Origin: Escherichia phage PinkRuby
Length of the DNA: 64,000 bases
Sequence record: PP925839.1
Strand: one strand, 5' to 3'
The notes under the pieces are model-generated. The model was given only the letters and a program-made list of their open reading frames with translations. It was not told the origin of the DNA and ran no database searches. The translations under genes were made by a program, and so were the position numbers. Positions 10,773-12,191 of this stretch are shown in pieces; the stretch's first letter is position 1, and each line of letters opens with the position of its first letter.

Positions 10773-12191
10773 TTATGGATAGGTATAGATGATACCAGTT
10801 TCTAAAGCAGTTTTATGAATGATGTATCCATTACGTGATTCTTGAACATCAACTTCTGGATAGTCTTTCATCATCTTCTGAAGAGTGTAACGATGCAGGT
10901 AGTATTTACTATCTGGATCTTCAGTTTTCCAATCTTTACCTTCTTCGGTCATTTTTTGGATTTCATCCATAACCCACCAACCGCACCAGATATAAGCTGA
11001 AGTACGATGTGGAAGAGGATGAACATAAGGCAATTCACCTTCTGGTTCTGGAGCAACTTTATCAGTTACCTGAACTTGACCTTCCGCCGTAATAGTTTTG
11101 CTATCATAATCAGCAGCAGTAACAGTTGCAGTAACTTCAATAGTTTGACTTCCAATAGATGAGGTATCAACGGTATATACATTAGTTGACCCTTCTACAG
11201 GAGAAGAATCTTTCTTCCATGAATACGCAATTTGCGCTTCTTCTGGAGCATCAGTGACATTAGCAGTAAATGTAGCCGAAGCATCTTGTTGAACGTTAAT
11301 AGAAGGAGGAGTCAATGTAACCTGTGGATTCATTGTCTTCTTATTAACTGTTAATGATACTTCATTCGAAGTAACTTCCTTTTCATTGTAATTTTCAGCA
11401 GTTACTTGGGCTACGCATTTAATTCTTTTTACTCCACTTGTAGTTGGAGTATAGCTAAATGTAGAGTTAGTTTCTCCACCAACTTGTGAATCATCTACAT
11501 ACCACTGATACGTAGCAGATGCTCCATCAGGTTGAGAAGCTAAGGCAGCAGTAAATTGAACTGGGGTTCCAATTACTCCAGCTGAAGGACTATCGGGAGT
11601 TACTGCCAAAGTAGTTGTCTGTGTCTTTTTATTAACAGTCAGTGACACTTCATTAGAAGTAACTTCTTTTGCATCATAATCTGTCGCGGTTACTTGAGCC
11701 ACACACTTAATTGTTTTAACTCCACTTGTGTCAGGAGTGTAATTGAATGTAGCGCTAGTCGCTTCGCTCACAGGAGAACCGTCAACGTACCATTGATACG
11801 TAGCAGATGCGCCTGATGGCTGCGAAGCCAAAGCAGCGGTAAATTCAACAGCTGTTCCAATTACTCCAGCTGAAGGACTAGCAGGAGTTACGGCTAAGGT
11901 AGTCGTCTGTGTCTTATTTTGAACTGTGATAGTTGTAGTAGCTTCTGCTGTTTCAGCTTCAGTATCAGGAACTGGATTTGTTGCAACTACCTTAATAGTC
12001 TTTTGACCGGCAGGACCTTTTAGTACATAACTAAAAGTTGCTGACGTTTCTTCCTGCGGAGCGTCGTCTACAGTCCAAGCATATGTAATAGGTCCATCTC
12101 CAGTTTGACCACTGGGTGTAGCAGTAAACTGCTGAGTCTGATCTATAACTCCAGTAGGTGTTTTAGGAGTTATATCAACTGTAAAAGCCAT
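10773..12191 (-). CDS. hoc: Hoc outer capsid decoration protein, with one extra Ig-like domain
   Basis: 472 aa versus 376 aa in T4 as recalled; N-terminal Ig-like domains plus conserved C-terminal capsid-binding region; internal ~95-aa tandem repeat. Confidence 0.9.
   Translation of the reverse strand: MAFTVDITPKTPTGVIDQTQQFTATPSGQTGDGPITYAWTVDDAPQEETSATFSYVLKGPAGQKTIKVVATNPVPDTEAETAEATTTITVQNKTQTTTLAVTPASPSAGVIGTAVEFTAALASQPSGASATYQWYVDGSPVSEATSATFNYTPDTSGVKTIKCVAQVTATDYDAKEVTSNEVSLTVNKKTQTTTLAVTPDSPSAGVIGTPVQFTAALASQPDGASATYQWYVDDSQVGGETNSTFSYTPTTSGVKRIKCVAQVTAENYNEKEVTSNEVSLTVNKKTMNPQVTLTPPSINVQQDASATFTANVTDAPEEAQIAYSWKKDSSPVEGSTNVYTVDTSSIGSQTIEVTATVTAADYDSKTITAEGQVQVTDKVAPEPEGELPYVHPLPHRTSAYIWCGWWVMDEIQKMTEEGKDWKTEDPDSKYYLHRYTLQKMMKDYPEVDVQESRNGYIIHKTALETGIIYTYP
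11336..11915 (-). repeat. tandem duplication (~287 bp x 2) inside hoc encoding two Ig-like domains
   Basis: Two consecutive near-identical protein blocks TTLAVTP(A/D)SPSAGVIGT...EVTSNEVSLTVNKKT; DNA units visibly similar. Confidence 0.8.

Follow-up and report, generated by a model that had tools for sequence, protein, structure and literature searches.

Why does the Hoc protein of Escherichia phage PinkRuby have 96 residues more than its counterpart in T4, and how did a gene of this form arise? The stretch analyzed here, called the window below, comprises 64,000 nucleotides of this phage (PP925839.1), and its hoc gene codes for 472 amino acids. The original prediction, made from the DNA letters alone, was that this Hoc contains a tandemly duplicated immunoglobulin (Ig)-like domain. 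We found that the window gene encodes a five-domain Hoc, consisting of domain 1, an A-type unit and a B-type unit of domain 2, domain 3, and the capsid-binding domain. The two-unit form is neither peculiar to the window phage nor a recent duplication in place; it is a common old allele. The reading that we favor, with a probability of roughly 85%, is that the window hoc represents one state of a widespread polymorphism, in which a domain-2 cassette is present in zero to three units and is reshuffled by recombination of the old lineages A and B.

The window gene and its parts are as follows:

10773..12191, minus strand: hoc, a 472-aa open reading frame (ORF) that matches T4 Hoc (PDB 5vf3_Z) with E = 8e-218 in HMMER
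11910..12191, minus strand: Ig-like domain 1 (aa 1-94), which aligns with T4 Hoc 1-94; a predicted beta-sandwich with a predicted local distance difference test score (pLDDT) of 82-94
11622..11909, minus strand: domain-2 unit 1 (aa 95-190), lineage A, QTTTLAVTPASPSAG...EVSLTVNKKT; a repeat copy with pLDDT 91-96
11334..11621, minus strand: domain-2 unit 2 (aa 191-286), lineage B, QTTTLAVTPDSPSAG...EVSLTVNKKT; a repeat copy and the HMMER partner of T4 Hoc 93-188
11064..11333, minus strand: Ig-like domain 3 (aa 287-376), which aligns with T4 Hoc 191-280; Pfam Ig_3/I-set at 289-373; pLDDT ~88-95
10776..11063, minus strand: C-terminal capsid-binding domain (aa 377-472), which matches T4 Hoc 281-376 almost without change

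The HMMER alignment paired residues 1-113 of the window Hoc with residues 1-113 of T4 Hoc, and residues 189-472 with residues 93-376, so that the start of T4 domain 2 was matched twice. T4 Hoc has 376 residues (annotated as 'AA 1-376' in GenBank X14869, and likewise in PDB 5vf3_Z), and the surplus of the window protein is exactly 96 residues. The double matching of the single T4 domain 2 therefore identifies the surplus as a second copy of domain 2. Both lengths given in the original prediction (472 aa here against 376 aa in T4) and its assignment of the excess to one additional Ig-like domain were thus borne out.

At the DNA level, Tandem Repeats Finder detected one array in hoc at 11334-11915, with a period of 288, 2.0 copies, 79% matches, and a score of 724, and it reported no other tandem repeat with a score of at least 60 in the 64-kb window. 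An ungapped repeat search resolved the array into two copies of 288 nt each, 11334-11621 and 11622-11909, which are 77% identical; both are in frame and code for residues 191-286 and 95-190, respectively. The repeats had been predicted as ~287 bp (~95 aa) copies spanning 11336-11915. The tandem arrangement and the end of the array agree with our results, and the dimensions need correction to exactly 288 bp and 96 aa and the start to 11334. The six surplus bases up to 11915 are the 'KT' codons with which both domain 1 and the unit end. The two units are identical at 223 of 288 nucleotides (77.4%) and at 78 of 96 amino acids (81%), and their nucleotide differences are distributed over codon positions 1, 2 and 3 as 10, 12 and 43. 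The peptides TTLAVTPASPSAG and TTLAVTPDSPSAG, which the prediction had named as the beginnings of the blocks, are present as written, each after one further common residue (Q95 and Q191). Since the blocks are homologous to one and the same T4 domain, adjacent, in frame and of equal length, a tandem in-frame duplication of T4 domain 2 is supported.

We modelled the window Hoc with AlphaFold2 from an alignment of 23 homologues. The model showed four successive beta-sandwich domains, with pLDDT mostly above 90 up to residue ~380 and 91-96 in both units. The C-terminal domain was poorly modelled (pLDDT 33-60), probably because the alignment is shallow and nearly invariant, and this part of the model was not used. 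In Foldseek searches against PDB the top matches were four-Ig ectodomains with E ~1e-13, namely Sidekick-2 Ig1-4, Dscam1 Ig1-4, and ICAM-5 D1-D4. Pfam matches on the window Hoc were PKD (E = 7e-11), PKD_4, PKD_3, Ig_3, Ig_2, and I-set. At the protein level, units 1 and 2 share 81% identity, the units share 35-41% with domains 1 and 3 (39-41% with domain 1), and domains 1 and 3 share 28% with each other. Of the 18 residue differences between the units, 14 fall outside the 45 of 96 positions at which a strand is predicted in both copies (Fisher p = 0.004). The predicted divergence of the copies at surface positions is therefore reasonably supported, with 'surface' taken here from predicted secondary structure and not from solvent exposure.

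The capsid-binding domain (377-472) differs from T4 281-376, the region defined as the capsid-binding domain by Fokine et al. 2023 (PMC10385173), by only 2 substitutions in the HMMER alignment, and nearly every column of this domain is invariant across the 23 homologues. Judging from this near-identity, the window Hoc would be expected to bind the mature capsid as a monomer, in the middle of gp23* hexamers.

We then asked how common the two-unit form is. A whole-gene hoc search matched 680 GenBank phage records. The number of records with at least 80% whole-gene coverage cannot separate one-unit from two-unit phages, because a single unit matches both copies of the query and the pieces get joined, and we replaced it by a reading of match spans, by artificial single-unit queries, and by a junction query at a strict E-value. 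We used GenBank records in place of the IMG/VR locus search with the Hoc protein, which returned 21 loci with only four close enough (L001-L004). In an evenly spaced sample of 60 records, 18 gave one-piece matches of 1419-1425 bp (the long form), 32 gave two-piece matches spanning ~1131 bp (the T4-length form, with T4, RB3 and RB32 among others), two gave matches spanning ~845 bp, and the remaining eight were partial or distant Hocs. The junction query consisted of 200 nt centred on the unit-unit boundary and was run at E <= 1e-50, a threshold that we estimated a half match could not pass. It found the unit-unit junction in 229 phage records, each at one place and with at least 80% of the query covered, including AR1, PP01, wV7, slur phages, and Sf23. 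From 229 of 680 records we conclude that about one third of the sequenced relatives have at least two units. Among the best 120 protein clusters, Hoc lengths were 376 aa (79 clusters), 472 aa (29) and 568 aa (7), with 371, 372, 468, 567 and 570 aa in the other five, so that the main lengths differ by steps of 96 aa. The polymorphism of the domain-2 cassette spans Tequatrovirus and Mosigvirus phages, with 0, 1, 2 or 3 units, and the domain-count survey of T4-like phages that the original prediction had proposed yielded, as sampled here, Hocs of 280, 376, 472 and 568 aa. Representatives of the series are listed below:

JQD51: 280 aa, domain-2 unit lost exactly, ...TTITVNKKTMNPQ...
AV111 (Mosigvirus): 282 aa, an in-frame hybrid of domains 2 and 3 fused at the common VTAxDYD motif
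T4, RB3, RB14, teqdroes, and PhiZZ23: 376 aa, one domain-2 unit
The window, QOTSP, wV7, and Pu-Krd-SF4: 472-474 aa, two domain-2 units
UGKSEcP1 and one ENA contig: 568 aa, three domain-2 units

Comparison of the two window units by the Nei-Gojobori method gave a synonymous divergence (dS) of 1.21 and a nonsynonymous divergence (dN) of 0.109, with a ratio (omega) of 0.09, and the synonymous divergence was 0.56-0.68 even in blocks without amino-acid change. The high dS and low omega indicate that the copies are old, under purifying selection, and not recently homogenised. For comparison with natural single-copy phages we constructed artificial single-unit genes in which the unit is flanked by 60 nt each of domain 1 and domain 3. 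The unit-1 construct matched teqdroes (94.5%) and RB14 (91.6%) end to end in one piece, and the unit-2 construct matched RB3 and its relatives (96.8%) and PhiZZ23 (97.8%) in the same way. Unit by unit, window unit 1 is 92.7% identical in nucleotides to domain 2 of teqdroes and 88.5% to that of RB14, and window unit 2 is 97.9% identical to that of RB3, 97.2% to that of PhiZZ23, and 91.3% to that of T4. The QOTSP units, arranged in the same A-then-B order, are 97.9-99.0% identical per unit to their window counterparts. A neighbor-joining tree of 26 units from 17 genes (288 nt, simple p-distance, recombinant sequences included) divided by unit type and not by phage. In lineage A, window unit 1 and QOTSP unit 1 grouped with the lone units of teqdroes, RB14 and IMGVR4 and with the units that come first in three-unit genes. 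In lineage B, window unit 2 and QOTSP unit 2 grouped with the lone units of RB3, PhiZZ23, T4 and IMGVR2. The third-position units fell on a sub-branch.

The units also proved to be mosaic. Between teqdroes and PhiZZ23, domain 1 and the 1 kb upstream of hoc are 100% identical and domain 3 with the C-terminal domain is 99.1% identical, while domain 2, which is of type A in one phage and of type B in the other, is only 78.8% identical. These two phages come from different settings (teqdroes, MN895438, from Denmark and E. coli; PhiZZ23, MT176425, from the UK and Citrobacter rodentium), and their inh genes and compared flanks are 100% identical. At the 18 sites where the window units differ, we painted the 79 single-copy units that the protein search had yielded, having dropped an earlier strict painting at diagnostic sites that used 5 sites only and was too coarse. 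The results showed 69 complex mosaics, 7 units of B-then-A type, and 3 of A-then-B type, and the segments that re-assort lie at about aa 10-32, 44-60 and 76-82 of the unit. In Pu-Krd-SF4 the first unit is of B type and the second is mixed, with some A-type parts, which approximately reverses the A-then-B order of the window. Ec_MI-02 shares 97.7% identity with the window across 24 kb, yet it has a single unit of a third lineage. The unit ends QTTTLAVTP and EVSLTVNKKT are conserved and the end of domain 1 (TITVQNKT) is similar, which would supply the homology that keeps every product in frame. Conserved stretches inside the unit include exact runs common to the copies at unit nt 30-56 and 100-116.

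To evaluate selection we pooled pN/pS (the ratio of nonsynonymous to synonymous polymorphism) by block over 25 units from 15 genes. The framework blocks gave values of 0.02-0.14, and three variable blocks gave 0.29, 0.41 and 0.66. This pattern reflects relaxed or diversified loops upon a conserved scaffold.

The mechanism that most likely accounts for these patterns is recombination, and T4-type phages recombine at very high frequency. Unequal (out-of-register) homologous recombination between units, in the course of replication or in mixed infections, would lead to gain and loss of units, and in-register homologous recombination, as allele exchange or conversion, would swap and blend them. 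The conserved unit ends would preserve the reading frame through each exchange. In the window the product would be a Hoc fibre one Ig domain longer than that of T4, with the surface of domain 2 in two copies.

The fibre of T4 Hoc, made up of four domains, measures 180 A (PMC10385173). By analogy, at ~45 A per added Ig domain, the window Hoc should form a fibre of roughly 225 A. Mucin binding of Hoc is on record for T4, PhiPNJ-6 and PhiPNJ-9 (PMC11150434 and PMC11853027 for the PhiPNJ phages): the four-domain Hoc of PhiPNJ-6 binds MUC2 fucose via domain 1 (PMC11150434), and the three-domain variant Hoc of PhiPNJ-9 binds MUC2 via the domain 2 residues S183/L184/T185 (J Virol 2024, PMC11853027). 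The same SLT residues are found in both window units, as S183-L184-T185 and S279-L280-T281; they lie within the invariant unit end EVSLTVNKKT and hence occur twice in the window Hoc. Two copies could give a two-unit Hoc higher valency or reach, and it is plausible that the longer Hoc alters the adhesion of the capsid, as the original prediction had proposed.

We weighed four other explanations of the repeat. The most straightforward interpretation of the original prediction is a recent tandem duplication in the window phage's own lineage, after which the copies diverged in place; two neighboring in-frame units of exactly the same length speak for it. Such an event would leave two copies that are each other's closest relatives and have a low dS; here the synonymous sites are near saturation (dS 1.21), each unit resembles the only domain 2 of some other phages (92.7% and 97.9%) far more closely than it resembles the unit beside it (77.4%), and the A-then-B arrangement is common to many records, QOTSP included, so we regard a recent duplication as highly improbable. 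Nor is it credible that the blocks are two distinct domains already present in T4 Hoc, without any duplication relative to T4: T4 Hoc is 96 aa shorter, its lone domain 2 aligns to both blocks, and the blocks are 81% identical to each other against the 28-41% typical of Hoc Ig-like domains. The HMMER alignment refutes this reading, which the original prediction had named as the one to be checked, and the duplication stands. Short-read genomes can mis-assemble tandem repeats, and an artefact of assembly, collapse or expansion could in principle imitate the array; we rejected it as having next to no likelihood, since reads place the units unambiguously when these differ at 65 of 288 positions, the ORF is intact, and the junction recurs in 229 independent records.

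A more serious alternative, although still an unlikely one, is that the multi-unit Hoc is ancestral and that deletion gave rise repeatedly to the 376-aa Hocs of T4 and other phages, with hardly any re-expansion or none; the surplus domain of the window would then be one that T4 has lost. It overlaps with our preferred explanation and differs from it in direction alone. Single-copy units occur in both lineages and are mostly mosaics, teqdroes and PhiZZ23 resemble alternative resolutions of an A-B parent, and further in-frame deletions are known in JQD51 (0 units) and AV111 (domain 2/3 hybrid). Domains 1, 2 and 3 are also mutually 28-41% identical, which suggests a long duplication history of the array. 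An unequal crossover between A and B, however, predicts units that are A at the 5' side and B at the 3' side, and only 3 of the 79 painted units were of this kind; the 7 B-then-A units and the 69 complex mosaics mean that bidirectional exchange or gene conversion is also needed. Pu-Krd-SF4, with its B-type and mixed units, and the three-unit forms favor expansion or re-assortment as well. We therefore prefer the reading of a domain-2 cassette that varies from zero to three units and is reshuffled by recombination of old lineages. Several points weigh against it. Recombination is seen only as sequence patterns, with no event caught directly, and the direction of gain versus loss is not polarisable from present sequence data. 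Only the deep A/B split of the unit tree is to be trusted, because a p-distance neighbor-joining tree that includes recombinants underlies it. Positive selection was sought in the loop blocks of the 25 units from 15 genes, and no pN/pS above 1 was found. Finally, the isolated domain 2 of PhiPNJ-6 Hoc failed to bind MUC2 (PMC11150434), so that the adhesion effect of a doubled domain 2 is uncertain.

The genes around hoc in the window are as follows:

9189-10193: rnlB-like ORF, on the downstream side of hoc
10203..10481, minus strand: gene 24.2-like ORF of 92 aa, downstream of hoc, with the length and position of 24.2 in RB3 and RB14
12201..12881, minus strand: inh (inhibitor of prohead protease), a 226-aa ORF, the upstream neighbor of hoc
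12932-14443: uvsW, beyond inh

The window inh matches the annotated inh of RB3, RB14, teqdroes and PhiZZ23 in length and position, and the gene order rnlB-like, 24.2-like, hoc, inh, uvsW agrees with the annotated loci of these four phages. The identity of the hoc locus is thus supported by neighbor genes that sit as in the relatives, and the window hoc itself is 94-98% identical in nucleotides to Hoc-annotated genes in many Tequatrovirus records. Escherichia phage SholemSchwarzbard shares 98.2% identity with the first 24 kb of the window, and several other Tequatrovirus genomes share ~97.6-97.9%. The gap between inh and uvsW (12882-12931) is without the homing-endonuclease gene segE, which RB3 and RB14 carry between these genes and teqdroes and PhiZZ23 do not; presence or absence of segE is a known type of polymorphism. 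No tRNA genes were found in the 64-kb window (1-64000).

Several records among the relatives deserve separate mention. Yersinia phage PST (NC_027404; positions 301-1720 of our extracted locus L028) has a two-unit hoc, 1420 nt long, whose frame is broken by a 1-nt indel near codon 15, and RefSeq annotates only the 930-nt 3' ORF as Hoc; the break may stem from a sequencing error or mark a genuine hoc pseudogene. The short-Hoc loci are those of JQD51 (PV204681; L032 601-1443) and AV111 (OR352941; L031 601-1449). The product names of JQD51 are shifted, with hoc called 'hypothetical protein' and the next small ORF 'Hoc-like head decoration protein'. A Logan contig of SRR17833564 (L035 501-2204) encodes a 567-aa Hoc that begins with a T4-like domain 1 and an A-type domain 2 and continues with two Ig-like units that have diverged much further and with a domain 3 that is also divergent. 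Overall it is 54% identical, its capsid-binding domain is nearly identical, and it looks like a chimera of distant hoc alleles. GenBank MG010123.1 (32 kb, 'Staphylococcus phage SAJK-IND') contains at 18685-20103 a T4-type two-unit hoc that is 94.5% identical to that of the window, and the record is almost certainly mislabelled or contaminated. To Hocs in the protein clusters P0027, P0006, P0025 and P0030 NCBI gives the misleading names 'endonuclease [Shigella sonnei]' or 'PKD domain-containing protein [Escherichia coli]'; the sequences belong to contigs of T4-like phages inside bacterial assemblies.

T4 nanoparticle vaccines have Hoc as their main display scaffold, and Hoc also mediates the adherence of phages to mucus. 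The natural variants with 0-3 copies of the cassette form a ready-made isogenic series for studying the effects of fibre length and valency on mucin binding, immunogenicity, and the persistence of therapeutic phages. The window itself is of little consequence as a common, already annotated Hoc allele, and cassette shuffling at the population level is of modest interest as a natural experiment on Hoc fibre length. As about a third of the close relatives have a longer Hoc, the 376-aa protein of T4 is not the sole standard form, and annotators and comparative studies should be aware that Hoc length varies beyond 376 aa. We tentatively suggest that the domain-2 array, with its 0-3 units, at least three lineages and re-assorting loops, may act as a contingency-like adhesin module that tunes fibre length and valency to the niche, although we doubt rather than expect this. 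If it were true, the state of the cassette would tune fibre length and glycan-binding valency to a mucosal or environmental niche at the population level.

Variation of Hoc domain number among T4-like phages has already been published. Fokine et al. 2023 (PMC10385173) described 650 Hoc homologues with strings of Ig-like domains, numbering from one (phage PG7) to 10 (phage Muldoon), and noted 'great variability' of Hoc even among close T4 relatives. The 472-aa allele has long been deposited as Hoc, with public records over a decade old, for example wV7 (HM997020). In a literature search that left key older Hoc papers outside its reach, we found no description of the 472-aa or tandem domain-2 form, of the 96-aa cassette series, of the A/B/C lineages, or of the mosaicism.

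Compared with T4 Hoc (376 aa; PDB 5vf3 and 8t1x; X14869), the window gene lies in the same locus (inh - hoc - 24.3/24.2 - rnlB) and shares domain 1, domain 3 and the capsid-binding domain, and its unit 2 is the one that resembles T4 domain 2 (91.3% in nucleotides). It differs by one A-lineage domain-2 unit inserted between domain 1 and this T4-like unit. The 472-aa Hocs of Tequatrovirus phages (vB_Eco_QOTSP, slur02/04, teqhal, SholemSchwarzbard, wV7, AR1, PP01, and Yersinia phage PST) likewise have two units in A-then-B order; the closest are 94-98% identical in nucleotides over the whole gene, and their annotations read Hoc, 'Hoc-like head decoration' or 'PKD domain protein'. They differ from the window Hoc by point differences only, except for PST and for wV7, in which a 2-aa insertion in domain 1 gives 474 aa. 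The 568-aa Hocs of Escherichia phages UGKSEcP1 and UGKSEcP2 and of metagenomic contigs share the type of tandem cassette and the flanking domains, but their third unit belongs to a further lineage (ANPxAG...SLVDGETTTTF...VGAKTVK) that is absent from the window.

JQD51 and AV111 (280-282 aa) are contraction variants with one Ig domain fewer, in contrast to the window, which is an expansion variant. The Hoc of PhiPNJ-9 is also a contraction variant with one Ig domain fewer; its MUC2 binding shows that Hoc can undergo a whole-domain change and stay functional, and its S183-T185 motif is found in both window units. The Hoc homologue of Serratia phage Muldoon, with 1174 aa and 10 Ig-like domains (PMC10385173), represents long homologues that are distant and composed of dissimilar domains. 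In the case described here, by contrast, the change is in the copy number of a near-identical cassette, and this number varies among phages that are ~98% identical genome-wide.

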